A stretch of DNA of 62,431 bases from Psammoneis japonica (taxonomy: Eukaryota): contig QPGO01000148.1 in the NCBI GenBank assembly GCA_008632985.1, positions 124,001 through 186,431 on the forward strand. Direction: 5' to 3'. The notes under the pieces were generated by a model. That model was not told the origin of the DNA, made no database searches, and saw only the letters and a list, made by a program, of their open reading frames with translations. Positions 7,620 through 33,471 of this stretch are shown here, in pieces. The translations under genes were made by a program, and so were the position numbers. Positions within the stretch are counted from its first letter, which is position 1; the number at the start of each line of letters is the position of its first letter.

Positions 7620-9190
7620 CGGTTGAGCACGGCATTGTTGCAGAGACAACAAGAAAACAGAAAACTTTCAAGTCAACCACTTGCCAAGCCATTTTACTCC
7701 CCACGAGTGAATGCTTGCCGTGCGGCCATGTCACCGGCACAGCAAAACCCCGATTCAGCATTCCATCAATGGCGTGATCTGCTCAGTGAGCTCTTGCTGC
7801 TTTGCAAACTGGCACTTGCTGTCTGTTTCAACAGCCGTGGTCTTGAGCGACCCGTGAACGGGCAACTTCCTGTGCTCAAAGACACAAGAGTGACATGGAC
7901 TCAAGGCCAGAGAGATGCACTCAATTTGCCCAAACAACCTCTGGAGTTAACTGGTGACACCTGCAATGCCACCTTCAACCATGCAAGAGAGCTGAAGCAA
8001 CTTAAACAAAAAAAAAAAGAGAGACAAGCCACCTGTGCTGGAGTCAAGCTCATGGCATGTCAGGGAAGAAGAAGGAGAGAATCACACCACATGGGCCAAA
8101 TGCTCTGAGGTCATTGTTTGTCATGCTTCTCAAATGATGAAGCAAAGAAAGTGCTTGATCCTTCTCTGCACTGGAAAGGACTGTGCCTTGCTTCAACAGA
8201 CAGGTTTTGATGCTCCACCAGCTGGGGTTGCTGTGCTTCTGCTTTGCCTGTGGCAACAGCAACATTCCGGCACCCAGCAACTGAGACTTTGTTGCAGCAA
8301 TTTGTGCACAGTCAACAGGAGGTTTTGTTGTGAATCTGAGTGGAGCACCAGGTGTTGGTCTAAAATCCAAGCCAGGGTTGCTTGGCAGAACACCCCCTGC
8401 AAAGCTCAATGACATGTGGGTGTGCTGAGCAAGGACAGCAGTTGGCACTCAGTTTGTGCTGGAGAGCCCCACAGCACACCTTGGAGCAAAAAGCTTGTAG
8501 CCAAAGGGGGGGGGGGGGGGGTGTTGCCAAGGAGGCAGGGGACTTTTTTGTCTCTTTGGGTTGCAAACCATGGCAGAAGAATGGTGGGCTGGTGTCAAGA
8601 TGCACTGCAAAAATGACTCATTTGCTTGCATGAAGACAAGATGCCATTGCTGGAAATCCATTGCACACTTGACATGATGCTGCCATTTGATGTCTTGTGC
8701 AAAGGCAGAGAGAGAAGCACAAAGCAAGCAGCGCAAGCAGGTTTCCTGACATTTCAGCCACACCAATGACAGAAAGATCATTTGTGCTGGCAGGCTTGAA
8801 GCAGGCAGTCATGGCATCTTGCTTGAGCTGGTGACGTGCAGACCAAAATGTGCAGAGCTCTGTGCAGAGGACCAATTTTGGCAATGACATTGGCCCCTCT
8901 GTTGAACTTCTGAATTGCCAGGTCTCACAGTCTGTTTGCTTGCTGCAACACATGCTTTTTAACATGGCGGCAACAAGTCCTCTGCTGCAAAGGCATTTTG
9001 TTCAGAGGCGATGACCACAGCAATTTCTTTGTTTCAGAAAAATGGCTTTGGTGTTTTGTGCCATGTCAATTTTTTTCTCTTTGGAGGGACAAAAATTCAG
9101 CGCCACAGTGGTGTCACAACAAACATTGTTTTGCATGATTTTGTTGCAATGAATTTGTGCAGAGCACATGCAGAGATGTGCCGCCAGCCT
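7620..9190. other. TpA- and CpG-depleted degenerate tract; contains a possible SF2 helicase C-terminal relic (~8100-8330, + strand)
   Basis: Only ~6 TA dinucleotides in 1.6 kb. Translated fragments LQQTGFDAPPAGVAVL and LLQQFV.RVNR resemble helicase motifs V/VI. Confidence 0.4.
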
Positions 9191-10740
9191 CAAGGGACAG
9201 GCTCATCCTCAAAATGACAAAAAGATGGGTGAAATGTGTCAATGTGCTTTGGGTGCAGAAAAGGCACTCCAAAACTGGATGTGAGGAGCTGCAGCAAGTG
9301 CATGTTTGCTCAGTGCTGCAGCCAAGAATGCCAGGCTGGTGTTTTCATTGATGTGCTGCCTTTTGCTTCAAAGATGAGCACAAAACAAATTAGAGTCTTG
9401 ACTTTAAAAAAAAAAAAAGGTTGTTTTGGGAGAACTGACTTTTTTTTGTTTCTCATTGACATGCTCTGAAACTTGCCACAAAGCAACATGCAAGTCAGTT
9501 GAAAGAGTCAGATGATGAGCCAGTGCCACAAAGTTGCAACAATTGTCCTTGTCAAGACAGGCTGTTTCTTGCATGATAAAAAGAGCTTGCAGCTCAAGGT
9601 TGCAAAGTGCAGCAGCTCACTGAACAAAGTCTTCTTTGCAAGATCTTTGTTGTTGTGTTGCATGTTTGGTCCCTGGCTCTGTTGATGTCTCTGCATTTTT
9701 GCAGAATTGACAGCTTGTGATCATGATGCAAGACCAGCTAAGTGCAACATTGTCAAGTCACCCCACCTCTTGTCACTTCTCATCCTGCACATCCCACTTG
9801 TCAATGTTTCCACCAGACTGCTGGAAAAGCAAAAATTTTTGAAAGAGCTTCATGTCAAGCAAACTGGTGTTTGAAAGCATGCATTGCTTGCTTGATTCTT
9901 GTCCTGCCACTTTTCTTGCAGTCAACATTGTGGCTCAATTCCACAAACTCAAAACAAGACACATGTGTTGCTTTGAACAAATTGTGCTCTCATCATCAAC
10001 CAGGTTTTGTCTCATTTCTGTTCTGCTCAAGCTTTTGTCACTTTCAATCCTTCAGCTTCATGTGCAAAAACAAGAGCAGCAACTCATTGCAGTGGTGCAT
10101 TGAACAAAGCTGCTGGCTCTCTAAAGAGCCCAGCTCTGCATGAACAAAAAATGAGTGTTGCGTGGAAGGAGGAGGAAGTGGCAACACACAGCACACATGA
10201 TGTGGTTTCAGAAATCACCCCACACATGTGAATCCAAGATGACAACCTCCTGTGTCACCCCTGGGCCACACCATTCCATCTGCACTTGCCACTTGCTTTC
10301 ATCTGTCTGCTGGGCTCTCAGTTGTCTCTCAAGGGAGGCATCTGTGCAGAGCTGGGAAAGGTCACAACTGCATCCCCTGTGACTCACATTGCCGCCATTT
10401 CAGGAACATTTTTGGGGTTCACAAATTCAGGCAGAAAGGCCAAGATTCTCAAACCGAATGCCGTGCATGTTTGGACACAAAGAACCAACAAAAGCGGTGC
10501 ATGCTGTTGCTGCAGCTCAGATGTTGCCACTTTTGTGTCTTGATTTTGAAGAATTCTGAACACCAAAAGGGACATTTTGGGTTGATTGAGATTGGGCAAA
10601 ATGATTGAAGAGGTGCCCACCAAATCAAGATTCTCCCCTCAACTTGCAATGCTCAAACCACTTGGAGCAGATGCTCAGGACAAATGTGGCCAGTTTGTGA
10701 AAATGTTGGCAAAAGAAAAAAACACTGCACAGCTTGGCAC
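9190..10740 (+). repeat. Hypermutated partial duplicate (copy B) of 4850-5900 (MYND C-terminus and downstream DNA)
   Basis: 9240-9500 aligns with 4870-5130 and 10140-10740 with 5300-5880. Many differences are TA->CA/TG and CG->CA/TG. Confidence 0.85.
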
Positions 10741-11339
10741 CAGGGAGTTGTGAACTTTTGCCATTGGAAATTGTTGCAGGTGGTCATCAGGGTGATTTTG
10801 AGTGTGCCCTTGACAACAAGCTGGTCAAGTCCATGAGTCTGGGGCTCCCCGCGGCATTTCTCTTGGGCAGCAAATTAAAACAAGATCCTGTTGTTCCAAT
10901 CTTGGCACATCCTGGGGATGTCATGACGTTGGGAGGGAAGAGCTGATTGTGTTTTCATGGAATGGCAAGGGTGACACCAGCAGATGCAGTGATCTCCAAT
11001 GTTTGCAAAAAGAGTTGCAGGCTCTTTTGAGAAATGAATGCATGAGCTCAGTGGCAAGCGATGGGTGTCAGGGTGCAAGTCCAGCAAATGGTGCGACAAA
11101 GTCGACGTGTCTGATTTCAGATTGTGACAAATGGGCTCTGTGGTGGTCTGTCTGTCCCAGCATCAAATGATGTCAACGTTCGACAGGTGTTTCCCAAATG
11201 GAGCACCTGAAAATCCACAAGACGAAAATTCTCAATTGGTTGTCATGCATCTCTCTGTGATGCTCTTCAAATGAAGAGCACACGATTTTTCCCATTCTTC
11301 ACGCTCCTTAAATCTAGCCACGCTGGTGTGCTCTTTTCT

Positions 11340-12760
11340 TCATCGAATGCGACGGCAGTCTGGACACGTCATTTCTTCATCTCTGTTCAATTTTGCTTTG
11401 CATTTCCCTTTTCCGTACATCCATGATCCACAATTAAGGTCGCAAAATGCAAAGCGTTTTGTTTCTTTGCTTTCACATTCGCAACAGTGCCACATCTTTC
11501 CGCACCAACATTTCCAATTGTCCTTAAAACACGCCAAACACATTCGCCCATTGCACGCCGAACATTTCTGCCAATGCCCAGTGTCTTCCATTGCACAAAC
11601 GTGGCAAACATACGAACTGCAGTTTCCAATGCATTTGTCGAGATTGCCTGAATCAAGGCACATTTCGCACAAGGCCCAGCCATCAGAGCACGGGCACTCA
11701 AACAGTGAGTTCACTGATGCGTCGCAATCACGGCAGAAAAAGCTTCCGCATTCCGCAGAACAATGGCAACCACAATCACGACAAGTTGCATTCTCGCACT
11801 CAAGACAGTGGTCTGTTGAGCAAGGGTCCGATGGGTCGTAACCGGGCGATGCGTGGAATTTTGAACTGCAATGCTCGCACTCCACCTCCATGCTGTCGTT
11901 GCTGGCCTTTCTGACAATTTCACCCAATTCTTTGTTTGCTTCCATTTTTTGTGCCTGTCCTTCTTTGGTGCATGATTAGCTTTCCCTGCCTGCATCTGTG
12001 GTTGTGGATGCTTCGACAGGAGCATCCTCAACGGCGTGACTCTTTTCCGCTGCTAGATTCTGTTCCTTGTTTTCTTCCACTTGCACCTGTCCTTCTTCGG
12101 CACCTGATTGGCTTTCGCTGCCTGCATCTGTAGTTTTTGATGCTTCAACAGGAACGTCCTCAACGGCGCGACTCTTTTCCGCCGCTACGATCTGTTCATC
12201 ATCACTGCTGTCATCCAGCACGATGGGATTCTCGCGTGCAGTCCTGTTTTTCCTTTCCAAAACTTGAGCGCGAGTCTCCCGGGTGTTTCACTTGGGACAA
12301 TTGCAGGTTGTGCACTCGGAATTGTTGTTGGAGATTTCCTTGCAGTGCACACAAAAATGGAGAAAGTGAGGAGCATGGTTTCGACAAGCAATGACGTTGC
12401 AGCCCATTTCCGACATGCAAATCATTGTCTTGCATTCCGGACACTGAACGCTTCCCTCCATCATGTTTTCCTGCTTTACAAAGGACCGGATGGACATCTG
12501 GGCGTGCGTCATCCTTCGTGATGTGGTTGCAGCATCTGCAGTCGGTGACGGGGAATCTCTTGCCACCGCATTGGATGGCACAGGAAACGGCGCAGTCATT
12601 GAGGCAGAATGATTGTGGGGAGTGGAGTCATTGTGGTCCACAGATCGCGATGGGGACTTTCATTTTCCTGCAATGGAAGTCACAGAATCCGGCACAGGCT
12701 CTGAGGTGTCAGCGCTGGGCAGTGCCACTGCTTGACGACTCATTTCTCTGCAGACTGCAA
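11340..12760 (-). pseudogene. Disrupted Cys-rich protein with an IBR/RING2-like module, a tandem acidic repeat and a C-terminal CxxC-rich region
   Basis: CPECKTMICMSEMGCNVIAC...HFCVHC pattern. A TGA at 12288 (probably from CGA) interrupts a frame that continues into ERKNRTARENPIVLDD. AAEKS.AVED.PVEAS.TTDAG occurs twice. CxxC-rich ORF 11340-11945. Confidence 0.55.
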
Positions 12761-13039
12761 GCAGCGCAGCAAGAAAAGAGAAGAGCCAGCAGAGCAGGTG
12801 TCACTCAGGAGAGATGGAAGATGGGCACAACAACGTAGAAGTGCAAGCATGTTCATTCTCAATTCATCGCTCCAACAAAAAATGGCAATCGTGTGTCTGT
12901 CTTGTGTCCGTCGGTGTCACAGGGTTGTTCTTCGTGTCACCACTTTGCGGTCAAAATTCAGAATTTGCAATCGTGATGACAACAGTTGACTTTCTACTGG
13001 GCTCATTTCGTCCACTGAAAGGTGAGTCCAGCTGAATTC

Positions 13040-14380
13040 ATTCACTTTGTCAGAGCCAGGACATGCGTTGAGTGCACGTGTGTGAGAAAGTGGTCCGTTT
13101 TAAGTGGCCGAACGATGTCGAAAGAACGCGAGAGCGAGGGCATGAGCAGCAGGTGGCAGAAATGCAAGCACTGAATTTTTCGATGCAACATGGACTTGAA
13201 TGGCCTCTGGTGCATGTGTTTGCATCAGTGTTTGTTCTCTGCATGCAAGCAGGTGCAGTGCCGGTTGGTTTTGCAACCCCGTTCTTGCAGCATTCTCTCT
13301 GTGTGGAAACACAGCATGCAGAGTGCACACCAACCACTGCTTTGTGTGAGTTGTTCTGCAAAAATGTTTTCTCTCACATCTTTGATCAACGAGTTTCCAC
13401 TCGCTTGGGTCTGCATGGAACCCATGCTTGTCACACAACAGATGGCAGTTGTGCCAGTAAATTGAGAAGTCCAGCCTTCTTGTGTTGTCATGAATGAAGG
13501 TTTTCAGAGACTCAAGGATGTTGGAATTGTGGAGCCCAATGCTGACATGATGGAGATGGCCATGTTTTCTTTGGCAGCTTGCGCCAATGTCAAAAGTCAT
13601 GCAAATCTTGGAGCTGTTCAAATCAAACATTTTCAGGTGCTTGTTTGGTGGATTCAAGATGGGCAGCATCATGGTCAACAGTTGACAGCTGGTGATGCAA
13701 CTGCAAATGTTTTGGCAACAGCTGGTGAGCCAAAGCTTCTTGTTAAAAGGAAAGGGAGAGTGCTGCTGTTTTGGTTGGCAACCTGGCAAAGTTCAAGCCT
13801 GAAAATTGCAATTTGCACAAGGGTGCATTCTTGAACTTGTTGTTGCAAAAGTTGAGCACTTTGAAGGCACCGTTGTGACATGTTGTCCATGCATGCTTGC
13901 ATTGCACCAAATGACTTTGTGAGTGAGGAAAAGCACATCATGTGGTGCCAGTTGCCACTTGTTGGTCTGCTTTTGAGGAAGACAATCTCACAGGTGCACT
14001 GCATGGTCAAAGAGCATCTGTTCAATGCCCCTGCCTGGCTGGGCTCAGATTTCCCCCAGTTTCTTGATGCTGCAGAGAAAATGGCTGTGCTGCTGTTTGG
14101 TCTTGGGTCAATCATTGCAATGGTGAAGGAGAGTTGAGCAAGCACACCGCTTTCTCCAAAAGTGCCATCAAAATGGTTCGTCACAAGCACAAAAGGGTGT
14201 GTCAATTCAAGAGACTTGCCAACAGGCTCACAAAGGCATTCATTGCCCTTGACAAGGATCCTGACTTGAGACACTTGGAACATCAGAAGGCCAACATGCT
14301 TTTGCACTGCAGCACTCAAACAACTGCTGATTCTGAGTTGGTGGAGTCCAGTTGTTTTCGACAACACATGCTGAGTTTTG
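13040..14380 (+). mobile_element. Degenerate CoDi-type copia relic (LTR end, PBS-like site, gag N-terminus), related to the 16.3-23.2 kb element
   Basis: attcattcac-tttgtcagagcc at ~13036-13057 mirrors the LTR-end/PBS junction at 16477-16498. ORF 13490-13834 (EGF..LKDV...LGAVQIKHFQVLVWWIQD) aligns with gag EGFTTLENI...LGTVQIKNLQAPVWWCQD. Confidence 0.75.
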
Positions 14381-15085
14381 ATTGGATGTGAACAATGTGG
14401 TTGCACTTCATGACTGAAGCTCCGTTCAACACATCCATGACCCATCTTGCTGCTTTTGTTTTGCATTGTGCATGTTCAACAATGTTTGGCAGTTCTGTTC
14501 AATGCATCCACGACCAATCGCTGCTTTTGTTTTGCATTGCACACTCAACAATGTTTGACTTCCATCACCATGGCTGACACCAACAGCAGCAACCATGTTT
14601 GTGACAAACAGATGGAGGTCAAGGGGTGATGGATCCAATGACAGGGCAAGGACACTGCTTCTCTCTTGCCCGCAGCAAAGCATTTCAGAAAGACTTGATT
14701 GTTGCTGTGGGGAGGAGATCACCTCACATGTGAGAGAACATTTGGAGCCCTTTTCCTGAAGTCACCAAGGACTGGCTTTCATGGAGATTGATGACCTTTG
14801 GCCTGATTGACACCTCAAGATGAAAATTGGCCATGGCTGGAAAGTTGCTTGCATGAAAAGTTGGACAGAGCACACCTCTGGGCCCTTTTGCCCTGAAACG
14901 TTTTGCTGTCTTACAGTCAAAGTTGACAAGAGAGACAACGGCAAACTTGTGCATGGAGATCAAGCCAAGATTGATGTTTTGTTGCATTCTGCAACAGAGC
15001 ACAATGGCAATTTTGGTGCTGTCAAGAAGTTTGATGAGGCATCAGGGCACCACAAGGCATGCCACCGGGTGTGCAATCATGAAAA

Positions 15086-15140
<55 letters not shown>

Positions 15141-16300
15141 TTCAGATTTCATGCAAACCCAAGAATCCAGTGTTGGTGGCCAGGAAACAAGAGCTGGAGG
15201 TCACAAAGTGTGACATTGATGAAAGTGGCATGCACCAGGGAAACCCTTTTGAAGGAATGCAGGACAACATTCCCTTTGTGTGGCTGGATCCACCTGTGGC
15301 CCCAGCTGCCACCCCATGCGATCATGGCGGTGTCGCTGAGAACTTTGAACTTGGAAGTGCCCACGAGAAAGCCATGGGTCACATGTTGGTCCTTTTACTT
15401 TTGGCAGTCAAAATCTGCAGAAGTTCAATTCATGGTGGAAGCGTTTGCCAATGAGAGTCTCACACTCGCCACGACAAAGGTTTTTTGCAATCATTTGTTT
15501 GCATGGTGTGTGAAGGAGCACCTGAAGGGCCAACTGGGCATTTTGCAACACACAACAATGCTTTCTTTCTCTTCTTTCTTGTGCACAATCTGCATTGTTG
15601 CTGTGTTCTGGAATCCAACAGAATTTGATGCACAGACAATGACTTGGAGGAGAAGATCTCCAAAGGTGTGGACACAGAGAACTCTGGTGAACAGAGCATG
15701 GTGTGATGAAAGTGCCGGTGCACGAAGTCTCCTGTGATTGCATTGAATCACCAAAGAAAAATTGCAAAAAGATGGGAATGCCCATGTGCTTTGGGTGCAG
15801 AAAGAACTTTCCAAAACTGGAGGTGAAGGCTGTGGCAAGTGCATGTTTGCTCAGTGCTGCGGCCGAGCATGCCAACAACGTGATTGGTGCGTTCATCGAT
15901 GTGTTGCCTTTTGCTTCAAAGACACACACAAAGCAACATGCAAGTCAGTCAGAAGTGTGAACAGAGAGAATCAGATGTGCTGATCATCTGCAATGCCAGC
16001 GATCATCCATCACATGAGCCAGCTCCACACAGATGTGACCATGTTGTGTCGTCCCGAGCCAAGACAGACAATTTCAGTCCCGAATGGAAAAAGAGAGCTT
16101 GCAGCTCAAGGTTGTAAAGTGCAGTGGCTAGTTTGAGCAAAGCCTTGTTCACAAGATCTGTGTTTTCGTGTTGCATGTTTGGTCCTTGGTGCCAACACTC
16201 TAGAGAGATGTCTCTCCGCGTTTTTGGGTTTGATGGTGCTGTTGAATTGCCGCATGTCAGCAGTGAACAAACCAAAACCATGACCCATGCCATGAAGTCA
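14380..16300 (+). pseudogene. Hypermutated duplicate (copy C) of the MYND gene and flanks (3600-5170)
   Basis: Colinear alignment, e.g. cctaatcggtacctc (3976) vs cctgattgacacctc (14802), gttaataag vs gttgacaag, ttgtacacgg vs ttgtgcatgg. Confidence 0.92.
15089..15136 (+). repeat. (AG)24 microsatellite
   Basis: Directly visible; corresponds to ggagaggcagag in the paralog at ~4258. Confidence 0.95.
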
Positions 16301-16303
16301 CAC

Positions 16304-16485
16304 CGAGTAAATCTGGATGGAGGGCTGTGTCACAATTGGTGATTGGTTAAGACATGTGGATTGAGTGGTGCTGCAGCGACACGCTCACAATCCAACCAGG
16401 TTTAGGTTCGCATTGACAGTGTTGCTGCTTTCTATTTAGACTTAAGGCACCGTGCTTGTTCTTTCATTGCATTGAGATTTGTTTG
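16304..16485 (+). repeat. 5' LTR
   Basis: Direct repeat of 22973-23156; starts CGAGTAAATC. Confidence 0.9.
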
Positions 16486-16944
16486 CTTTGTCAGAGCCAA
16501 GACGAAAAAGACAGAGCAAAATGGTCTCGAATGCAATCGTCATGGACGATTGTTTGTTGTGTTGTTTGCATGGAACGTGCAGCTGTAGAAACGGCACTGA
16601 ACTGCACGCAATGAGTCAGAATTCGGATTGATGCGCACGATGATGCGTCTTGTGTCGCTTGTTGTGACATCCACAAAAACAGCTTGCAATGGCAATGCTC
16701 GCAAAGATGGTCACTGTCCTCACACGTGCAATGGGTGTGAAGGGACTGCGGCATTGGGCGACATGCCCGAGCGTGTGCCCAATGATGTCGGTTGACATGA
16801 ACGACACAGGACTGATCACCCTGATGTCGGGTGGCTGTGTGAACCCGTTGTCACAACACAGAGAAAGTGCAGCCATCATGACCATGCAGACTCACAGCCA
16901 CATGCTCCCGGTGCAGGACCTTTGCACCCTTTCTCTGTTGTGGG

Positions 16945-18474
16945 ATGGCAGCAGTGGCAGCACCAGCAGCAGCACTTGCGGCGTCAGCCGCGGCAGCTGA
17001 CGTTGATGCAGTTTCACAAGTTTGTGGTGTTGCTGACCAGAACGCAAGGGCGAGGTTGGTCTTCTGTGAAGGGTTCACGACTTTGGAAAACATCGCAGTG
17101 ATGGAGAGTGATCACGATGTGGAAGACATGGCGCAAAGGGCGTCTCGTCACACGGTGGCCGACGGACGTGTGACTCTTGGGACTGTTCAGATCAAGAACT
17201 TGCAGGCACCAGTGTGGTGGTGCCAGGATTTGCTCAAACGGAATCAGCCATTGGTTGCGGCAGACTTCAATGTGGCAGCTGTGGCTGCGGCCCGGAATGG
17301 CAGGCGCATCGAAAAGGAGCGCACGGATTCAGACGCGTCGGCAAGCGGTCTCGTAAAGTTCAAGCCCGATGACTTCGATGTGTGCGAAGATGCTTTCCTG
17401 AATCTCTTGGCACAGAAATTTGGCATGTTGAAAGAACCCCTTCGCCATGTCGTGAGGACAATGCCAGCTCCGGCTGCATTCACGGATGCTCAACAACAGT
17501 GCATGTGCCAGATGCCATTGAATGGCACTGCACATGACGAGGACAACCGCAGTGTTTGCCGCATGTTGAAGGAATGCTTGGTCGACACGGCAGGATGGGC
17601 ATGGATCGAACCGTTCAATGCGACAGAAGACGGACGTGGAGCATTCAACGCATGGGTTGACCATTGCAATGGACAGGGCGAGTTGAGCAAGTGCATCCAT
17701 CTGGCTGCGGCAACTGTTGAAACCTTGTTTTGCAAAAAGGAAGGATCGCTCCCGTTCGAAAAGTTCAATGAGAAACTCACCAGTGCTTTCACCACTTTGA
17801 ACAAATCACCGGACGACCACAAATCTGAACGACAGAAAGTTGACATTCTTCTAAAAGGGATCCGAACGGATGACACTCGTCTTGTTGCAGCAACGGCTGT
17901 CATTGGCAGTCAGCACCCTCGTGACTTCGCGGGGGCATGTGCTTGTTTCTCATCCGAAGTCTCTCGTTTGCATGCAGGTGCTCAGTTGGAAGCCCGGCGT
18001 CACTCGAAGTGCAAGATTTCTGAAATGAGCCGTGGTGGCGGCGGTGGCCGCGGTTTTTATCGAGGTCGTGGTCGCGGAGGAAGATTTGGATGTGGGGGTG
18101 GATGCGGACGTGGTGGTGGCCGTCAAGGCAGAGGTGGCGACCACACTGCAATGATCAATGGAGTCAATGCATCCAACCCTGCAAGGAGCTTTAGCGCTCA
18201 AGAGTGGGAAAAGTTGCAGCACAATGGGGGCATGAGCCACGTGTTCCAAGCTCGCGAACGAATGGGTCATGGACGTGGTGGTGGCCGTGGGTCTCCCGCA
18301 GGTCGACAAGGACGTGATGCAGCTGAAGCCCAAGTCCATCAAGATGGCCAAGGCCAAACCCAACAACAGGATCAGGAGCAAAGGAGTGGCGGGCGTGGTC
18401 GCGGCGCTGACCGGGATCGCGGTGGACGCAATGGATGCGCCTTCGGTCGGGGAGCCTACAATGGTTCCACCTGA
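16945..18474 (+). CDS. Copia Gag (Tyr-depleted, RGG-rich C-terminus)
   Basis: 509-aa ORF with CoDi gag features (EPLR.VVR, DGRGAFNAW..H.NG.GE, RGRG tail). Only 2 Tyr. Confidence 0.85.
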   Translation: MAAVAAPAAALAASAAAADVDAVSQVCGVADQNARARLVFCEGFTTLENIAVMESDHDVEDMAQRASRHTVADGRVTLGTVQIKNLQAPVWWCQDLLKRNQPLVAADFNVAAVAAARNGRRIEKERTDSDASASGLVKFKPDDFDVCEDAFLNLLAQKFGMLKEPLRHVVRTMPAPAAFTDAQQQCMCQMPLNGTAHDEDNRSVCRMLKECLVDTAGWAWIEPFNATEDGRGAFNAWVDHCNGQGELSKCIHLAAATVETLFCKKEGSLPFEKFNEKLTSAFTTLNKSPDDHKSERQKVDILLKGIRTDDTRLVAATAVIGSQHPRDFAGACACFSSEVSRLHAGAQLEARRHSKCKISEMSRGGGGGRGFYRGRGRGGRFGCGGGCGRGGGRQGRGGDHTAMINGVNASNPARSFSAQEWEKLQHNGGMSHVFQARERMGHGRGGGRGSPAGRQGRDAAEAQVHQDGQGQTQQQDQEQRSGGRGRGADRDRGGRNGCAFGRGAYNGST

Positions 18475-18483
18475 CTCCTTGGG

Positions 18484-21400
18484 GTGGCAACAGCTGCTGG
18501 AGCATTGGCGCATTTGGCACACTTGTCGTTTTTGCTTGTGTTGCTCTTCTTGCTGTTGACCAAACCCCACCCAACATCTCATTTCAAAGGAAAGGCGACA
18601 AAGAGGCACATTGCCGTGACATCAAAACGTGTGATCCGATCGACGAGTTCTGCACAGATGACAAATTTGATGACACCTGGGTTTGTCGCTCGAAATGAAT
18701 GTGATGCTCACGTGGACACTTGTTGTGCTGGGGCGAACTGGAAGCTCATGGAGATGACAAATGAAGTGTGCAAGGTGCGCCCATTTCTGGACTCTTATGA
18801 GCCGATCAAACAGATTCCTGTGGCACGTTGTTGCACCGCATGGACAGATCCGGAAACGACTCGTGAACATTTGCTGGTTGGTGATCAAATGCTCTGGTTT
18901 GGGACCGACATGGAACACTCACTTTTGAATCCTAACCAACTCCGTGCGTGCAACACACCCGTACACGACAACCCTTACGATGCCCGAAACGGATTTGGCA
19001 TTGAAGCTGACGAAGCTTTCATCCCTTTCAATGCCACGGGGACAATTGTGTCTTTCAAGTCTCGTGTTCCAACGGATTGGGAAGTGCAGAACTTGCCGGT
19101 CATGCTGTTGACAGGTGACGTGTGGGATCCAGCACAGACAGACATGGGCTTGCTGGAGCGCACTAGAGAGCAGGCGGAGATGCGCACTGTTCGATCATCA
19201 ACCTCTGGCATGCGACAAGAACAGGTCTTGGAATTAAGGAGCGAGAAGGCAAAGTCCCAAGCAGCACGCTGGGGCAAGGTCAAAATGCAACTGTCGTCTG
19301 CATCTCCTGTCTGTCAACTTCAATCGTTTTGCGACAGGCTTGTCAGCTCAGTGAACGTGGCTTGCACACATCGCGATGACGTGGACAAGAGGCAGAGGGC
19401 AGTCAAAGATTTGTGCAGCAAGGATCGGCACTCGAAGGTTGACGCTGAAGAGCTGGCCCGAAAATGGAGTGTCGGTTTAGAAACGGCAAAAGATGCTCTC
19501 AATGTAACAACTCAGCGTGGTGTGCAAACGGCGACCCAGCCGATGTCACGAAGAGTGAGGGTGGATCATCTTGACTTGCATCGGAAGCGTCTGAAAGGAA
19601 CATGGTTTGTGGACACTTTGATGTCCAAGGTGAAGTCTTTGCTCGGTGACACGTGTGCCAATGTTTGTGCTCAGGGCAAATTCGTGAAGGTTGTGCCGAT
19701 GACCGCCAGGTCGGAGGCAGGTTTTTCTCTTGTTGAATTCACAGACGACGTGGGAGCACCAGAATGTCTCATGTCGGATGGGGCAGGAGAGTTCACAGGA
19801 AGGAGCACCGAATTTGTGAGACACGCACGACGTATGAGAATGCAATTGAGAACATCAGAGCAGGGTCGGAAGAACCAGAACCAGGCAGCGGAGCGCGAAA
19901 TTGGTTTCTCAGCCAAACGTTGGCGGCTGCGGATGACAAAGAAGAAGGCACCAAAGCGATCATGGGATTTTGGTCTTGTTTGCGAGTCAGAATTAGTGTC
20001 GCGCATGGCAAGAGGCAGGGATGAGAGGACTGGGTGTGAAGAGGTCACTGGGCAGACACCAGAGACAGGCGAGCATTTGGATTTTGGTTTCTACGATGTG
20101 GCACGGTGGTGGGACAGGCCCAACAAGCCGAGTGCAACTGACGATCCTCGAAGGCTTGGACGGTGGCTTGGCATCTCACACAAAGTTGGCTCGGACATGT
20201 GCCATTGGATTGTTGCAGAAAGTGGGAAGATTGTCTCCAAAACATCGGTCGAGCACGTGACACAGGCTGATGTGGTGCAACCGGATGTTCGCGTTAAGGT
20301 CGACAACTTTAATGAGCAGCTGGAGAAGCGATTGGACGACACCAACTTTGTCTTAAAAGGCGATGAAGCTGTGCCCGCATTCGTGTTGGACGATCTTGCA
20401 ATCGACGGCAACCTCGGTGTGGAATGTGAGGGTGGCATCACGCCAGAGGACGAGGAACATGGCAACATGCCATCACCCGACGAGTGACCAGACGACGACG
20501 ATGAGCAGGCAATCAATCAACACCTGGGAATGGAACTTGTGTTTGACATCGGAGCCGACGGCGAGTGACGTGGTGTTGCAACGAAACGTGCAAGAGGACA
20601 GGATGGGCGTCCAATTGGGACTCGGCATCAAAACCCATTGTTTGACACTCGCGAATGCAAAGTGGAATGTGCCGACGGAACCACAGATGAGCACACAGCC
20701 AATGTCATTGCCGAGAACATGTTTGCTCAGGTCGACAGTGGGGGCAACCAGCACTCTGTCTTACACGAGACACAGGACCACAAGAGGAGTGACGATGCGG
20801 TGTTGATTGCTGACGGCACTGCACGAACCACTGACGGGAAGGAGAAGAAGAAGATCACAACAAAAGGATGGAATTTGTTGGTCGGATGGAAGGATGGCAG
20901 CTCATCTTGGGTCAAACTCAAAGATCTAAAGGACTCCAACCCCATTGAAGTTGCTGAGCATGCTGTTGCGAACAGGTTGACGGAGGAACCTGCTTTTGCT
21001 TGGTGGGTCACACATGTCCTGCGCAAACGGAACCGCATTGCATCCAAGGTCAAGAAGAAGCACTGGCGCACGACTCACAAGTTTGGGGTCCGATTGCCCA
21101 AGTCCATGGAGGACGCTTTGCGGATTGATCAGGAAACGGGGACAGATTGTTGGGCTTGTGCAATCAACAAGGAGATGGCAAAGGCAAAGGTGGCATGGCG
21201 CGAGCACGAAGCTGAAACCCCTCAAGTCGTCCGGGAAGGCAAGAGCGCAACTTTGCGTGGTCATCAGGAGATCAGGTGCCACATGGTGTTCGACATTAAA
21301 ATGGATTTCACCAGAAAGGCAAGGTTTGTAGCTGGCGGACACACGACAGAGGCCCCGGCATCGATCACTTGCTCTGGCGTGGTTTCCAGAGACAGTGTGC

Positions 21401-22800
21401 GACTTGGATTCTTGTTGGCAGCCTTGAATGGCATCGACATTACGGCGATTGATCTGGAGAATGCTTGTCTCAATGCACCATGCGCAGAAAAGACATGGTT
21501 TGAAGGTGGAAAGGAATGCGGCGAGTACGAAGGAAAGGCACTTGTTGTCACTCGGGTGTCACATGGCTCAAAGAGCTTGGGATGCTCTTGGAGGTCTGCA
21601 CTGTCATCAGTCTTTTGCATGACTTGGGCTTCGAATCGACGAGAGCGGACCCAGATGTCTGCTTGCGTGCGGCGACTCGTGAGGATGGGCATGAGTGTCA
21701 TGAAATGCTTTTGGTTTGTGTCGATGACACACTGATCATTTCCCATCAAGGGAAGTCCATTGTTGCTGCAACAGGTGAACACTGTGCCGTGAAGCCCGGC
21801 AGCAAAGGAGAACCAGAAGTTTGTCTTGGAGCCAACGTTGAGAAGGTTCAGACTCAGGATGGGTGCACAATCTGGGCGAGTTCGCCGAGGTCACATGTCA
21901 AATCGGCGATTGAGACTGTGGAAGGCCTGTTGGATGAAGACGGCAACGGAGAGGTTCTGAAGAACAGTGCAAAGGATCCACTGCCCCTGAAATGCAAACC
22001 GGAGCTGGACATGACGGACGAGCCAGGCCCCGACTTGGTGGACAGGTGTTTGCAGCTGACAGGGATTTGTCGTTGGGCCATCGAGTTGGGTCGCATCGAC
22101 ATCTTGCATGAGGTTTCAATCCCATCTCAACATCAAGCTAATCCGAGGAAAGGACATCTTGAGGCATTGCATCATGTGTTTGCGCATGTGAAGAAACACC
22201 AGAACGTCGGACGCATCAGATTTGATCCAAAGGAACCGGTGATTGATGAATCTATTTTCAATTCGAACGCAGACTGGACCGAGTTTTACGGGGACATCGA
22301 GGAGGAACCACCACCACGGGCACCGAAGCCTCGTGGTGATCCGGCAAACGTCCGCACATTTGTTGATGCTAACCATGCAGGGAATGTTGTCACTCGCAGG
22401 TCGCACAGCGGGATTCTGACATTCGTCAATGACGCGCCAGTGGTGTGGTTCAGCAAGCGGCAGAACATGGTGGAATCGGCAACGTTTGGAAGTGAATTGG
22501 TTGCGATGCGGATTTGCAAGGAATTGATTGTTGCTTTGCGTTGCAAGCTTCGCATGTTTGGGGTTCCCCCTGAAGGACCGGCAAGTGTCTTTTGTGACAA
22601 TCGCGGTGTTGCAAAGAGTGCAAGTGCACCCGAGTCGGTTTTGCACAAGAAGCACAATGCCATCAACTGCCATGTTGTGTGAGAAGCGGTCGCAGCGGGA
22701 ATTGTTCGTGTTGGCAAGGAGGACATGGAAACGAACTTGGCCGATCTACTTGCGAAGGTGGTTGCAGGAGAGCGGCGATGGAAGCTTTGCTCGTGTGTTT
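18484..22800 (+). pseudogene. Copia Pol (protease, integrase, RT, RNase H) with TGA stops and a frameshift at ~21610
   Basis: ECDAHVDTCCAG protease, integrase core (DT...SDG...AEREIG), RT KARFVAGGH and CVDD, RNase H FVDANHAG...RRSHSG, NLADLLAK. Confidence 0.92.
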
Positions 22801-22972
22801 TTTGGCAATGTCCCGACACCAAGGCCAGGCACCTGTGGCTCGCGCCCACGTATCGTGGCCTCCCAAGCCAGCACATCTGGTGGTTTAATTTGGGTTCTTG
22901 TGGTTCACCTCTCTGTGAGAGGATGTTGCATGTTCAGACGAATCGGCATTGTCATTGCCGTTTCGCGGGGAC

Positions 22973-23156
22973 CGAGTAAATCTGGATGGAGGGCTATGTT
23001 ATAATTGGTGATTGGTTTTAAGATGTGTGGATCGAGTGGTGCTGCAGCGACACGCTCACAATCTAATCAGGTTTAGGTTCGCATTGACAGTGTCACTACT
23101 TTCTATTTAGACTTAGGGTATCGTGCTTGTTCTTTCGTTGCATCGAGATTTATTCG
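22973..23156 (+). repeat. 3' LTR
   Basis: Direct repeat of the 5' LTR; ends TTTATTCG; retains more TpA than the 5' LTR. Confidence 0.9.
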
Positions 23157-23221
23157 ACACCACACCGCGCGCATGCCGACACCGCGGTGCGTCGCACATC
23201 ACCGATGCTCACCATGTCACC

Positions 23222-24334
23222 ATGAGGGACGTGTTTGCCGTTTTCATTTTAGTTCCTACTGTGCTTTCTCTCACACCAACAAGCAACACACCAGTGTCTC
23301 GACGTGATGCTTCAATGCCCATACTGACTGGATGCCTTACAGGTGCTTTCATGTCTGCTGATCAGGCGCGAGCCGACAGCATGGATTCCGCTCTGCCTTT
23401 GGGTAGACCACAACTGATCCCAGAAATCGAATCTACTCCCTCTTGGTCACTCCCGTCGCTCGTTACCAATCTTGGTAAATCGAGAATACTTGAAATGGAG
23501 CTGTCGCCTCTCAAGAGCTCCTTGTCGCCTTTTGCAGAACAAGAATTGTATTATGCACCCTTTCTCTTTGGGTCTTGGAATGTGACTGCAACTCTTCAAT
23601 GCAAGGTTTATCCGTATGGAACCAACTATGTGCCGTCGGTATCTCTCATTGAAGGTTCACCACGCAATCGAATAGAAAAAGTGGGTGACTCGACAAGCTA
23701 TCAGTTGCACTATTTTTCGACACTGGCCAACACGGCTTCCAATCAAATCACAGTTCAACTTGGATTGGGAGTTCCGTCTTCCAAAGTTATCGCCGATCGA
23801 AAATTCAATATTATCGCAACAAGCAAAGCATACAAGCAATTAAACCCCGTCCAAGATGTCGAATGGAATCCCACAAAGGATCCGACTCGTCTAGTCTTAT
23901 CCTTTGATCCGGGAGCTGTGGCTCCAGATATGAGACCCTTGGGACAACAAAAGGCGCAAGTTTACATTACCGCTCGACAGTCGGAAGACGCGTTTGATGA
24001 AGAGACTGGACAACCAATTTATTGCGCATCAGAAACGAGTCGCTCCGTCACACAGGGCCCGGGTACTGTAATTGTATCGGATACCGAATCCATTACAGAG
24101 TTTCGCAAAATTTCTGATTCTCACGTGGTGTCTACATCACGAATTGCGGTTTACTTGACACCCAACCCCAACTCTCGAGAAGGTGTCCTTTGGCAGCAGG
24201 TTGGTGGCAAAGCTGTTGCCTTTTATGACTATGAAATTGAAATGAGAAGAAACGAAGAGACCTTTTTGGTGGATGGGAAGGAGCAAAAGAGGGCGTGCGT
24301 CAAGACACCCAAGGATATAATACAGTGCTTCTAG
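23222..24334 (+). CDS. DUF6816-like protein with signal peptide and possible plastid/Tat-type presequence
   Basis: N-terminal hydrophobic signal then SRRDA...A.A. ELYYAPFLFGSWNVTATL and IADRKFN resemble DUF6816 (recalled, not searched). Intact ORF. Confidence 0.6.
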   Translation: MRDVFAVFILVPTVLSLTPTSNTPVSRRDASMPILTGCLTGAFMSADQARADSMDSALPLGRPQLIPEIESTPSWSLPSLVTNLGKSRILEMELSPLKSSLSPFAEQELYYAPFLFGSWNVTATLQCKVYPYGTNYVPSVSLIEGSPRNRIEKVGDSTSYQLHYFSTLANTASNQITVQLGLGVPSSKVIADRKFNIIATSKAYKQLNPVQDVEWNPTKDPTRLVLSFDPGAVAPDMRPLGQQKAQVYITARQSEDAFDEETGQPIYCASETSRSVTQGPGTVIVSDTESITEFRKISDSHVVSTSRIAVYLTPNPNSREGVLWQQVGGKAVAFYDYEIEMRRNEETFLVDGKEQKRACVKTPKDIIQCF

Positions 24335-27878: not shown

Positions 27879-28139
27879 GCTACTACGAAGAAGAAAGAAG
27901 GATGTCACTGTGTTGCATGGAGGGATGACAGGTATGAGGAGGCGTTGCAACGTTGCAATGTTAATGACTCTATTACCGGCACCACGTTGCGACTCTTATT
28001 TTTTTCTTTGTGTGTCTCACCCATTCATTTTGAGTCGCGAATCGATCACTTCAAAGCGAGTCCCGAATCGGACGAAAGCCTCGAAAATTAATGGGTTCTC
28101 CTCCATCGCCAGGCTGGAAGGAAACATTGCGTGGGTCAC

Positions 28140-30480
28140 GACCCGCAAATCTCAAGGAGGTTTGTGTCCACTGAGACATGCACCAGCAATCACAAGCAGA
28201 AAGGATCAATGTTGCTTGGTTGCACCAGAGAAAGGCTGAGACAAGTGCCTTGTTTTGTGACCCGCCAGATTTTCAGCCGGAAATGAAGCAGCTCAAGGCT
28301 CACAGCGTCAATTGTGGAAACACCAACTGGCAAGGACTCAATGCAATCTTGTTGAGATGAGAAGTGATTGTGTGGAGAATGGCACAACTCAATGATGATC
28401 AAGAGACGGACAGTGTTCGAAAGCATTGTGCAGCCACCAAAGGAGATGTCGTCTGCTGTGATGTGTGCTTTCTTGTGTGGCTCTGTTTCTCCAGGAGATC
28501 TTTTGCAACTTTTCTGACCTTGTCACAAGGCATCTCAACAGAAAAAAAATCCACACAGAGGTTTTTGTCTTTGAGACCAGATTTCCGTTTTTTTCCACAT
28601 TCCCGCATTTCCAGATTTCCGAGTTTCCGTTTTTCTGGATGTCCGGGTTTCCGTTTTTGTGGATTTCTGGGTTTCTGTTTTTCCACTTTTCAACGTCAGC
28701 CACACGCCCACAGCTTCTACGTGGGTTTCTATGCACCTTCTTGCACTGATGTTGCCCTTCTCAGATGGTGTTGATTTGGCTCCAACAAGCCCATTCTGCC
28801 CACGTTTGCGCCAATGGTGCATCCTCACCACAGCATGATGAGCAAAGTTCATCAGTGGAAAACGATGAGTGTCCCGGCCTTTTGGTTCGTAAGCTGGTTG
28901 TTTTTTCTTGTAATTTTCTGTTGTCTCAGAAAATTTTCTACAAAGGTTCTGGTGCAAATTCTGCGCGGATCTGCAGATGCTGCTGACGATCTGCATGTCA
29001 CTTCCCCAGCCTGCTTTTGTCCTTGCGAATTGGTTCTCAATGCTGCTTCTTTTCCTTGCCATGCAATCAAGTCCTTCACTCTTTGTGGTGCAAGCCCACT
29101 TCTGTTGCGGCCCTTTTCAGCAAGAACATTGGTTGTCCTTTGGAGTCATTTGATTGTCATTGATTTGCTGCTCCCATCGGTCTTTCTGCGCAAGATCTGG
29201 CATTGTTTCTGTGTGCTGCCTCTGACTGTCTACGTGTCACTTCTCTGGACCACTTTTGTCCTTGACAATTGGTCTTCAACCTCTCCACTTTTCTCTGCCA
29301 TGCAATCAAGTGCTTCACTCTTTGTGGTGAATCTGCTGCTTCTTTTGCGGCCCTTTTCAGCAAGAACACAAGTTGTCCTGTGGTGCCATTTGATGGTCTT
29401 TGGTTTGCTGCTCTCAGTGGCTTTTCTGTGCAAGACTCAGCATTGTTTCTACGTGTCAAGAACATTTTCTCCAACGACCTGCTTGTCTTGCCTTCAAGGC
29501 TGCCTTTGTGGACTGTTTTAAAAACCCATCTGAGTGCAATTGTCCGTTGCAGTTGTGGTGTGCCTTCTGTGGCTGTCATCAACAAGCACGCAACAAATCC
29601 CTCATGTGAATCATTCCTCCCAAGTCATCTTGGTGGGGTGTCATCTTCTGGTGACGCCCATTCCGGCTGATCCCGTGCAAGCTCCTGCCGCACTTGACTG
29701 TGTGCTGGGAGTGTGGGTCAGCCGGCGCCGGCCCAGCTGGCAAAGGAGTGACAGCACTCAAAAAACAGATCTGTTTTTTTTGGGGGCTTTCTGTTTTTTC
29801 GGATGTCTGTTTTTCAGTTTTTCTGATTTCTGTCTTTCTGTTTTTCCAGATTTCTGGGTTTCCAATTTTCCAGATTTCTGGGTTTCCACGTTTCCGGATT
29901 TGGTTTCCATTTTTCCGGATTTCCGGGTTTCCGTTTTTCTGGATTTTCTGGGTTTTCATTTTTCCGGATTTCCGGGTTTCCATTTTTCCAGATTTCCAGG
30001 TTTCTGTTTTTCCAGATTTCCAGGTTTCTGTTTTTCCGGATTTCTGGGTTTCCACATTTTTGAATTTCCGGGTTTCCGTTTTTCTGGATTTCTGGGTTTC
30101 CATTTTTCTGGATTTCCTGGTTTCCAGCCAAAGGGAGCATGGTGTTTGTCGATGCCTGGCATCAGTGCATGCACAAGCAGCAAGGAGACAAGCAAGGCCA
30201 GCCCATGCTTCATGTGGCTGCATGTTTTCATCAATGCAAAAGGAAACATCATCTGTGATGTGTGCTTTCTTGTGCAACTCTGTTTCTCCAGGAGAACTTT
30301 TGCAACTGCTCTGACCTTGTCACAAGGCATCTCAACAGAAAAAAATTCCACACAGAGGTTTTTGTCTTTGCAAGAGATGAAAGTTTGTGAGGAACAAGAT
30401 GAGGAGTTGGCAGCTTGGCTTGACAATGAAGAGGGGCAAAAGCTTTAAGATGGAAGAGAGCAAGTTCAGCAGAGTGACAC
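28140..30480. repeat. TpA-depleted composite repeat with 24-bp minisatellite arrays (~28575-28690, ~29790-30125) and internal direct repeats
   Basis: Unit consensus TTTTCCGGA-TTTCCGGG-TTTCCGT. ~130-bp direct repeat 28440-28572 / 30240-30370. ~240-bp-period duplication 29030-29460. Confidence 0.85.
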
Positions 30481-30489
30481 TTTGCAAGG

Positions 30490-32620: not shown

Positions 32621-33471
32621 TTCTCTGCATGTGGCGAAGCCGTCAAACGCTCCATGGCCACCGCATCTTTTCGGTGTCGATCGAAATTCAATTCGTCAAA
32701 CGTGTGCCAACAGCACAGCGTTTTTAACACACGCTTTTCCTGGTTGATGTCTCGAATCACAAAGACATCACGAAAGCATCCGTGTGCTTTGTAGCAAATC
32801 TGCCGATGATGCTTGTTCCGTTCACAGTTAAAATCAGACATGTCGATCTCATGCACATTGTTGCAAGCCGGAAAAGACTTGGACTGCCACTCGTACATTG
32901 GTTTGCACTCTGGATGTTCTTCGTAAACTGCACATTTCGCATGCCTGACGCAATGCTTGCTGTTGTTCACAATGTCATTCCGTCGTTCCAAATCGTCAGC
33001 GGAAACATTCATTTCCCTCTTGCTTGGACACACCGGGCAGTCGTCGGGAAGTCGCTGAAATGACGGTCTGTCAGGCTCAAGGATCTCATCCAGAATGTGA
33101 TTGGTGCAGATCACAAGTCTGGGGCGTACGCCACATCCAAGTTTCAAAAGATCGTCGACTCCGCCCACGGTGCAGGATGCGCCGAGCAGATGATTCAACC
33201 TGTTGCTCGCGCACATTCGTCTCAGTCCTCCACGGCTGAGCAAATCATGGGGAGGAACAGTGCTGGCCTCATTGCTGCCTCCCTGCCTCCACACAAAGAT
33301 CACAAACAACCATCCAATCAATTGAAGAAACAAAAGCACAGCAAGTGAAAGCCACACCTTTTGAACTGCAGTCATTCCCTCGCGTCGGTCATTTCGCATT
33401 CTCCCCTTTCTCAAGATTGTTCGAGACTGTTTCAGTGCTCTTCGATTTCCCATTCTAGAAATGACACTCAC
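32620..33471 (-). pseudogene. 3'-truncated diatom membrane-anchored protein kinase-like gene
   Basis: TM segment, then FPACNNVHEID, AHGCFRDVF, VLKTL, NFDRHRKDAVAMERLTASPH (kinase N-lobe of a diatom family). Breaks at the junction with gag. Confidence 0.75.

Follow-up and report, generated by a model that had tools for sequence, protein, structure and literature searches.

Transition-only divergence between the long terminal repeats of a copia-type retrotransposon in the diatom Psammoneis japonica suggests a transposon-restricted loss of TpA

The two long terminal repeats (LTRs) of a Ty1/copia-type retrotransposon in the diatom Psammoneis japonica differ by transitions only, most of which lie at TpA dinucleotides and fall in the 5' copy. 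The element lies at positions 16305-23156 of a 62,431-nt stretch of contig QPGO01000148.1 (assembly GCA_008632985.1, positions 124,001 to 186,431, forward strand), which is referred to below as the window, and is followed by an intact gene of the DUF6816 family. Beyond what an earlier note on this DNA had described, TpA has been stripped from the whole interior of the element and from every transposon-derived domain in the window. The data establish the direction of the change, its sequence specificity, its use of both strands, its restriction to transposon domains, and the single insertion of the element. The most probable explanation, held with fair though not full confidence, is a hypermutation of TpA to CpA or TpG that acts after insertion and on transposon DNA only, accompanied by decay of CpG, with the 3' LTR lying outside the affected domain.

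A repeat search followed by alignment recovered two direct repeats about 6.67 kb apart, with homology over 16302-16485 and 22971-23156. The LTRs themselves span 16305-16485 and 22974-23156 on the forward strand and are 89.7% identical. The earlier note had named the lack of a true target-site duplication (TSD), with LTRs derived from two different elements, as the finding that would undo its interpretation; a perfect 5-bp TSD, ACACC (5/5), flanks the element on the forward strand at 16300-16304 and 23157-23161, both copies being read from the sequence and the call requiring that the LTR begin at GAG (16305 and 22974) and not at 16302. The ACC that precedes each LTR belongs on the left to the TSD and on the right to the junction formed by CGCGGGGACC, a polypurine-tract-like sequence at 22964-22973 (forward strand) that abuts the 3' LTR and is also kept, by alignment, in two related elements, the metagenome loci L005 and L078. 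The LTR termini are inverted repeats, CGAGTAAATC matching the reverse complement CGAATAAATC at 9 of 10 positions. The TSD shows a single insertion, so the LTRs do not come from two elements. The 5' LTR is followed by TGTCAGAGCC, which resembles a primer-binding site and may match a tRNA; when related loci were searched for such a site, the single match was irrelevant, and contig ends there carry terminal repeats that resemble assembly overlaps. Scans for tRNA and Rfam families across the window gave no match.

The interior of the element carries an RGG-rich, gag-like open frame at 16882-18474 (forward strand, in-frame stop at 18472-18474, no Pfam match), which is collinear with a gag-like relic at 13607-14304. 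It is followed by pol (18553-22805, forward strand), delimited by tblastn of the polyprotein P0004, a tally of conserved columns, and alignment, in which protease, integrase, reverse transcriptase (RT), and RNase H follow the copia order. The tblastn search matched P0004 over its full length (1418 aa, PF07727) as well as 71 further polyproteins, and pol is collinear with copia polyproteins of ~1400 aa carrying PF07727, with one frameshift near 21600-21606. The integrase lies upstream of an RVT_2-type RT, as in Ty1/copia. The Pfam match of the element itself to RVT_2 is weak (21.8 bits, below the cut-off of 31.6), which fits its mutation load. In contigs from a public sequencing run, one of three listed from a single study, the element is multi-copy, with a summed contig depth of 1600-2500 compared to ~55 in the flanks, a depth that puts the family at ~30-40 copies. 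With P0002 as query, protein searches in two modes listed 120 matches each, none of them above 71% identity, and so supplied no sister copy from this genome; a scan of viral contigs found no relative, and a scan of genome contigs found four loci. The pair is read as the LTRs of a single Ty1/copia-type retrotransposon, hosted by a raphid pennate diatom, that inserted once at ACACC.

Alignment of the LTRs gave 18 transitions, no transversion, and one 2-nt indel (TT). At seven sites TpA in the 3' LTR faces CpA or TpG in the 5' LTR, two reciprocal sites (CA/TG at 16353-4 and TG/CA at 16423-4) account for four changes, four sites read CpG in the 3' copy but TpG or CpA in the 5' copy, and three other changes lie at 16396, 16445, and 16450. 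The totals of 11 changes at TpA, 4 at CpG, and 3 others, with the same indel, are exactly those of the earlier note. Its claim of a strong asymmetry is also borne out, with hits at 9 of the 15 TpA sites for the 5' LTR and at 2 of the 15 for the 3' LTR (Fisher p = 0.021), 13 against 2 for all polarised hits (binomial p = 0.007), and 4 of 9 CpG lost against 0 of 9, each hit being assigned by a polarity that the outgroup gives for the interior and that is inferred for the LTRs. For the LTRs this polarity would follow from the interior, from sequence context, and from the CpG argument rather than from sister copies. The 5' LTR retains 6 TpA (1 in ATA/TAT) and 5 CpG, whereas the 3' LTR has 13 TpA (6 in ATA/TAT) and 9 CpG. 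For an expected transition share of two thirds, 18 transitions out of 18 have p = 0.0007, but only p = 0.07 against the copy-to-copy spectrum of the element family in the run contigs (517 transitions, 82 transversions), so the transition-only pattern is typical of the family and not special to this pair. Within the 5' LTR, the rate of TpA loss is ~40 times that of other sites. As no transversion separates the LTRs, the element is young and the raw divergence of 10% is misleading.

The direction of change in the interior was read against an outgroup of 72 polyproteins of at least 1250 aa aligned to the element. Columns were taken as conserved when at least 30 homologues were aligned and at least 70% agreed, which left 674 codon columns. 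Among 26 conserved tyrosine columns, the element has tyrosine at 3, cysteine (TGY) at 12, and histidine (CAY) at 11. Further changes are isoleucine to threonine (ACA) at 6 columns, valine to alanine (GCA) at 7, leucine to serine (TCA) at 4, and leucine to proline (CCA) at 2; these are the losses predicted for TpA within and across codons, namely ATA to ACA, GTA to GCA, TTA to TCA, CTA to CCA, and T|ATC to T|GTC. Glycine (58 of 62), proline (35 of 36), lysine (30 of 31), and cysteine (8 of 8) are largely kept, and retention is 92-100% in the columns of glycine, proline, lysine, glutamate, tryptophan, histidine, and cysteine. The RT motif reads CVDD in the element and YVDD in its relatives. The 112 changed columns need at minimum 62 TpA-type changes, 19 CpG-type changes, 22 other transitions, and 34 transversions. 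Ordered by position, the 52 single-step events comprise 30 T>C and 22 A>G, and do not cluster by strand (runs z = -0.4). The fate of the tyrosine columns means that a once-functional element lost TpA to TpG and CpA on both strands, which is the reverse of RIP (repeat-induced point mutation), and that TpA is the target rather than the product, the polarity the earlier note had assumed. Selection against TpA was ruled out as a cause, as conserved tyrosines of the catalytic region are destroyed.

The loss of TpA extends far beyond the element. Five sharply bounded domains of the window, at ~7750-16300, the element itself, 28000-30500, 31680-33456, and 36914-40810, show a drop in TpA per 500-bp bin from 15-35 to 0-5. 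Together these transposon domains contain 101 TpA in 23,167 bp compared to 1008 expected from the density in the rest of the window, with an observed-to-expected ratio (o/e) for TpA of 0.08 against 0.63. CpA (o/e 1.71) and TpG (o/e 1.55) are in matching excess, and the other dinucleotides are little shifted, except CpG in the older stretches. In the four domains other than the element, TpA o/e is 0.06-0.15, and two of them are also stripped of CpG. Besides the element, the domains contain a copia pol relic truncated at its 5' end, a relic that resembles gag, tandem repeats, and an old pair of LTR-like sequences; no TpA-rich transposon domain was found anywhere in the window. The GC content of the element (0.53) is above that of the whole window. 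The older relic directly upstream of the element (7750-16299) has a TpA o/e of 0.06 and a CpG o/e of 0.33 (0.99 in the rest of the window), while the young element has lost ~90% of its TpA with a CpG o/e still at 0.85. Ultraviolet-induced TpA photoproducts and mutagenesis of the Pol-eta type at WA do not fit a loss that is not genome-wide and an AA o/e of 1.22.

The process has a marked sequence preference. When the frequency inside the transposon domains is divided by that elsewhere in the window, survival comes to 0.01 for ATA/TAT, 0.09 for GTA/TAC, 0.13 for CTA/TAG, and 0.21 for TTA/TAA; among tetranucleotides, it is 0 for ATAT and 0.62 for the nearly immune TTAA. In the tyrosine codons, a 5' purine goes with T>C (9 of 13) and a 5' pyrimidine with A>G (8 of 10; Fisher p = 0.036), an effect of the flank that makes R-T-A, equal to T-A-Y on the opposite strand, the recognition unit. 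Attack on the T and attack on the paired A would fit the sequence equally well. A weak secondary class of changes was also noted, A>G at N-A-T with a 5' base other than T, at 20299, 21088, 22350, and 22618 (Ile ATC to Val GTC three times and Asn AAT to Ser AGT once). To this class also belongs T>C at A-T-C, seen twice in the 5' LTR (16396 and 16450), and AAT/ATT (0.82) and ATC/GAT (0.89) are slightly depleted in the transposon domains.

This preference allows the LTRs to be compared with the interior. The interior has a TpA o/e of 0.09, compared to 0.45 for the 5' LTR (computed with 5 nt added) and 0.88 for the 3' LTR; the corresponding CpG values are 0.85, 0.55 (same addition), and 1.14. TpA o/e is 0.11 in the last 500 bp of the interior against 0.88 in the LTR, which places a step at the first base of the 3' LTR. 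The six TpA common to both LTRs lie in GTAA, TTAA, TTAG, CTAT, TTAG, and TTAA, five of which are resistant contexts. A further five sites of the ATA/TAT type survive only in the 3' LTR, giving 6 against 1; with the reciprocal ATAT site counted as a seventh ancestral sensitive site, Fisher p = 0.029. Once context is taken into account, depletion in the 5' LTR comes close to that of the interior, and the 3' LTR shows essentially none.

Independent data bear on the same process. A run contig of 6553 nt covers the upstream relic from 8506 to 15044 with 3 differing letters. Five places listed in the relic as differing between run and window comprise three with CpG in the run and TpG or CpA in the window, one with TpA in the window and CpA in the run, and one transversion; one difference between strains of the TpA-to-CpA/TpG type was seen, at 13458. 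Three of the four differences listed in the adjacent gene region are transversions. These differences, small in number, fit a process that is still running. Among 80 related metagenome loci, 78 have a TpA o/e of 0.53-0.92, so the deficit is not intrinsic to the lineage. The exceptions are L005 (0.26) and L078 (0.30), which belong to a different family, 67-69% identical to that of the window element. Conserved tyrosines have become histidine or cysteine at 11 of 13 columns in L005 and 5 of 5 in L078, while eleven control loci keep 167 of 170, and both loci share the trinucleotide survival hierarchy of the window domains. The same signature appears in proteins. P0139 (ENA, 684 aa) keeps tyrosine at 2 of 18 conserved columns, with histidine or cysteine at 15, and P0023, a full-length open frame, keeps 17 of 28 with histidine or cysteine at 7 and is already about one third hypermutated. 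In P0139 the lost tyrosines are ordered HHHHHH CCCCC H .. HHH, with 3 runs against 7.7 expected (permutation p = 0.005), which suggests action on a single strand at a time; strand-coherent tracts of this kind are absent from the saturated copy in the window.

In the favoured explanation, two context-specific mutational processes would act on transposon DNA only, once it has been inserted. The dominant one would work at the level of DNA and convert TpA to CpA or TpG (A:T to G:C) on either strand, with ATA/TAT by far preferred over GTA/TAC, followed by CTA/TAG and then TTA/TAA, and with TTAA nearly immune. The second and slower one would be ordinary decay of CpG to TpG or CpA, as for methylated cytosine. 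The 5' LTR and the interior would sit within an affected domain continuous with the older relic upstream, and this domain would stop at the first base of the 3' LTR, which would retain its state at the time of insertion. The agent may be an enzyme directed at silenced or repeated DNA, with an adenine deaminase acting on T-A-Y and a thymine-modifying enzyme acting on R-T-A as candidates, and the 3' LTR may escape through its location in the promoter region of the adjacent gene. The main reason for the domain model is that loss of TpA and loss of CpG, which are chemically unrelated, spare the same LTR, pointing to a boundary of silenced chromatin. A post-insertional origin, as the earlier note had proposed, agrees with the single insertion marked by the TSD, with hits on both strands, and with the difference between the LTRs; its view that the mutation is far faster than background agrees with the roughly 40-fold excess at TpA and the absence of transversions, and its warning on LTR-based dating is upheld, as a raw divergence of ~10% would greatly overstate the age of the element. 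Its further suggestion that an active gene damps the process is not established. The 3' LTR is spared and ends 65 bp from an ATG, but this is a single case, the outcome would look alike under purifying selection on a co-opted promoter or under conversion of that LTR, and L078, whatever lies next to it, also keeps TpA in its 3' untranslated region (UTR) and LTR.

Several observations weigh against this explanation. Among the 40 of 615 variable places that are listed, none falls at an LTR site except the indel. LTR site 23152 is G in both L005 and L078, as in the 5' LTR, and parsimony would make the A of the 3' LTR derived; the site may instead be read as a parallel loss at a hypersensitive TAT. 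Both reciprocal LTR sites could come from CpG and not TpA. Moreover, the interior may have been partly hypermutated before this insertion. Four listed CA/TG double sites show the opposite product in all of the other contigs, and over ~330 nt the mutated codons of L005 and L078 are the same, which suggests ongoing multiplication of mutated copies or conversion between them. As for the proximity of the gene, the effect comes from one LTR, and the older relic at 36914-40810 is free of TpA as far as its edges, which are not spared. Protection by the promoter, selection on a co-opted promoter, and conversion all fit the escape of the 3' LTR.

The strongest alternative, though on balance an unlikely one, is that the same hypermutation is triggered by repetition, in the manner of RIP and perhaps at meiosis, rather than by chromatin state. 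Recognition would then taper at the end of the repeat unit, and the 5' LTR would be affected through being embedded between repeated blocks. Every TpA-free domain is indeed transposon-like, the element is multi-copy by depth, and at the end of the 36914-40810 domain TpA returns within ~10 bp of the end of homology (40809-40817). Furthermore, L078 keeps ATA/TAT sites in its family-specific 3' UTR and LTR and none in its coding part, and the strand-coherent tracts of P0139 resemble those of single rounds of RIP. Against this, the copy number of the LTR is at least that of the interior, so homology alone predicts no step at the start of the LTR; the 8.5-kb relic is now at single-copy depth, though perhaps it was repeated when mutated; and the window element lacks strand tracts.

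Somewhat less likely again is that the interior was already free of TpA at insertion, a dead, hypermutated master with intact LTRs having been mobilised in trans, so that only the differences between the LTRs are post-insertional. The double sites at which all other contigs share the other product, the mutated codons common to L005 and L078, and the open, full-length but partly hypermutated P0023 would all agree with such a history. However, it only shifts the puzzle of a mutated interior with clean LTRs to the master copy. The 5' LTR is nearly as short of sensitive sites as the interior, so a strong post-insertional process exists in any case, and the spectrum of 517 transitions to 82 transversions fits widespread independent decay.

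A third possibility, less probable than these two, is that the mutational process does not spare the 3' LTR. Gene conversion or recombination, with a solo LTR or an unmutated copy as donor, may have restored it, or selection may have removed lineages in which it was hypermutated, as it would now supply the promoter or 5' UTR of the DUF6816 gene. In favour are the short distance between the LTR and the ATG of an intact, conserved gene and the very abrupt step in TpA o/e from 0.11 to 0.88. Conversion between copies is suggested by L005:435-1463 and L078:6-1035, which are ~99% identical over the first ~330 nt, including the mutated codons, and then ~80%, a mosaic that points to either gene conversion between copies or chimeric assembly. 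Nevertheless, an intact TSD means that the flank was not replaced by exchange between elements, no candidate donor was observed, and selection on a promoter is not expected to keep 9 of 9 CpG and 13 of 15 TpA.

Two other explanations are very improbable, to about the same degree. The first is editing before integration, either of RNA by an ADAR-like A-to-I activity or of minus-strand cDNA by an APOBEC-like enzyme or an adenine deaminase. Hypermutation of retroelements by editing enzymes is reportedly well known in animals from the work of Knisbacher and Levanon, and edited retroviral cDNA shows a step near the polypurine tract. Here the strands are hit about equally (12 TGY and 11 CAY; 30 T>C and 22 A>G), and the 5' LTR alone has both TA-to-TG and TA-to-CA changes. 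Reverse transcription makes LTRs identical, yet these differ at 18 positions despite the TSD, and relics other than retroelement interiors are also TpA-free. The second is an artefact of sequencing or assembly in which modified bases in transposon chromatin are systematically miscalled. The sequencing platform is unrecorded, and the best-matching run may be the source sample of the window itself. Logan contigs of up to 315 kb with ~55-fold word depth nevertheless need accurate reads, and the relic differs by only 3 letters in 6.5 kb; the signature is also present in separate metagenome contigs and ENA-derived proteins, and copies differ in their product (CA or TG) at one and the same site. Least credible of all is a fungal-type polarity, in which the 3' LTR gained TpA from CpA or TpG and the 5' LTR is the unmutated copy, for although alignment alone sets no direction and two related LTRs carry G at 23152, the outgroup contradicts it for the interior, the window has no TpA-rich transposon domain, four gains of CpG would be needed in the 3' LTR, and the differing sites concentrate in ATA/TAT, the class most depleted elsewhere.

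Other features of the window complete the picture. The DUF6816 gene (23222-24334, forward strand; Pfam PF20670, E 1.9e-14) has its ATG at 23222, 65 bp past the end of the 3' LTR. It has 236 homologues, with identities of 47-66% among the 120 matches listed, and the named homologues among these matches are from Nitzschia, Mayamaea, Seminavis, Fistulifera, and Cylindrotheca, all raphid pennate diatoms. Within the older relic, a patchy LTR-like pair at 9237-9676 and 15779-16189, ~6.5 kb apart, is 83-89% identical in blocks, and over 252 aligned bases its copies differ by 32 transitions and 11 transversions as well as 4 CA/TG doubles; it terminates just upstream of the insertion site of the young element. 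The domain at 28000-30500 (TpA o/e 0.06) holds tandem repeats and a 118-nt direct repeat. Arrays with a period of 8 bp, of the TTTCCGGR / TTTCTGGG type, lie at 28568-28707 and 29803-30156 and are bracketed by the direct repeat (28456 and 30253, 94% identical), whose differences are too few to classify. The domain at 31680-33456 (TpA o/e 0.15) has normal CpG, and that at 36914-40810, on the reverse strand, carries the 5'-truncated copia pol relic at 38108-40809. With TAA and TAG gone, the four domains other than the element contain many long spurious open frames on both strands; a Pfam scan of 71 open frames of these domains gave sub-threshold chance matches only. Adjoining the first domain, 7001-8200 has normal TpA and a summed contig depth of 680-845 in run X1 compared to ~55 for unique sequence, contigs ~88% alike also in run X2, and no tRNA or Rfam match, and is a repeated or conserved element. 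A scaffold gap of 461 N lies at 60809-61269, and G+C falls to 0.30-0.37 at 60-62 kb, the right end of the window. Among the other loci, contig G001:C2 (L088; 13,616 bp), filed under a Chlamydiaceae metagenome-assembled genome, encodes a copia pol of diatom type, with 73-82% identity to the polyproteins, and has the look of a eukaryotic contaminant in that bin; its ends are TpA-free tandem satellite arrays, which are uninformative.

Among known systems, fungal RIP is the closest, with shared logic and not shared chemistry. RIP of ascomycetes is likewise a dense, transition-only hypermutation of transposon and repeat DNA with a dinucleotide preference and action on both strands, which destroys coding capacity and inflates the apparent age of elements. 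However, RIP usually converts CpA to TpA (C:G to T:A), so that TpA accumulates, whereas the change seen here (A:T to G:C) removes it; the repeats that RIP leaves behind are TpA-rich and GC-poor, whereas here TpA o/e is 0.08, CpA and TpG are in excess, and GC is raised. Cytosine deamination or methylation of the RID type cannot yield the changes seen here, and the host is a diatom. RIP is confined to duplicated sequence, acts before meiosis, and depends on RID or DIM-2; here all domains look transposon-derived, and one is now at single-copy depth, though it may have been repeated when mutated. RID-like DNMT4 genes occur in diatoms, with function unknown and no hypermutation described in the passages concerned of Hoguin et al. 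(2023, PMC9998398). Decay of CpG through 5-methylcytosine resembles the minor component, with 4 CpG lost in the 5' LTR and a CpG o/e of 0.3 in older relics, and its boundaries, known here from base composition, coincide with those of the TpA-loss domains; it cannot account for the loss of TpA. APOBEC3 and ADAR offer a further likeness as enzymes whose context-specific transitions kill retroelements. ADAR makes A-to-G changes with a preference for a 5' U. Both enzymes act on RNA or cDNA before integration, with a strand bias and with LTRs left alike, whereas here both strands are hit, the LTRs are unlike, and relics other than retroelements are affected. TadA/ADAT2 deaminases and the TET/JBP hydroxylases of base J and 5-hydroxymethyluracil are candidate chemistries only. 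Enzymes of the ADAT type deaminate A34, always after U33, in the context U-A-N, while base J and dinoflagellate 5-hydroxymethyluracil favour T before A, and oxidised thymines can pair with G. To our knowledge, neither group hypermutates transposon DNA. The element also resembles the CoDi copia-like elements of diatoms in being copia-type, its nearest relatives being diatom and environmental polyproteins of 1400 aa.

No description of TpA loss to CpA or TpG in transposons was found in the full-text literature, subscription journals and supplements lying outside the search. In a term search, neither biased mutation nor RIP nor divergence of LTRs was found to be treated by Maumus et al. (2009, PMC2806351), and the passages retrieved from that paper, PMC4504042, PMC9998398, and the preprint 10.1101/2025.10.24.684338 describe no such loss. 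The process runs opposite to fungal RIP and seems to be unreported. A broader proposal, put forward tentatively and at somewhat less than even confidence, is that some pennate diatoms possess a genome defence that is the chemical mirror of RIP, changing A:T to G:C at 5'-TA-3' with a preference for TAT/ATA, targeted to silenced or repeated DNA and halted at active promoters. The enzyme would be a natural DNA adenine deaminase or a thymine-modifying enzyme, and tyrosine codons as well as TAA and TAG stops would be erased from transposons in little evolutionary time. The chance that a new enzymatic activity lies behind the pattern is substantial, and a natural TA-specific A:T-to-G:C activity on double-stranded DNA would be of interest for the development of base editors.

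If real at genome scale, the process would invalidate dating by LTR divergence and by identity to a consensus. A 2025 preprint on diatom transposons (10.1101/2025.10.24.684338), in the passages retrieved, dates elements with a single constant rate. The TpA deficit, above all in ATA/TAT, would serve as a marker of silenced DNA that needs only the sequence, and it would explain both the relics missed by Pfam and homology searches and the long spurious frames left by the loss of TAA and TAG. It would also imply a DNA-modifying activity undescribed in such a role. If real genome-wide, it would be a transposon-directed hypermutation with a polarity and a target known from no other organism, and diatoms would have an extra defence against transposons besides methylation and histone marks.

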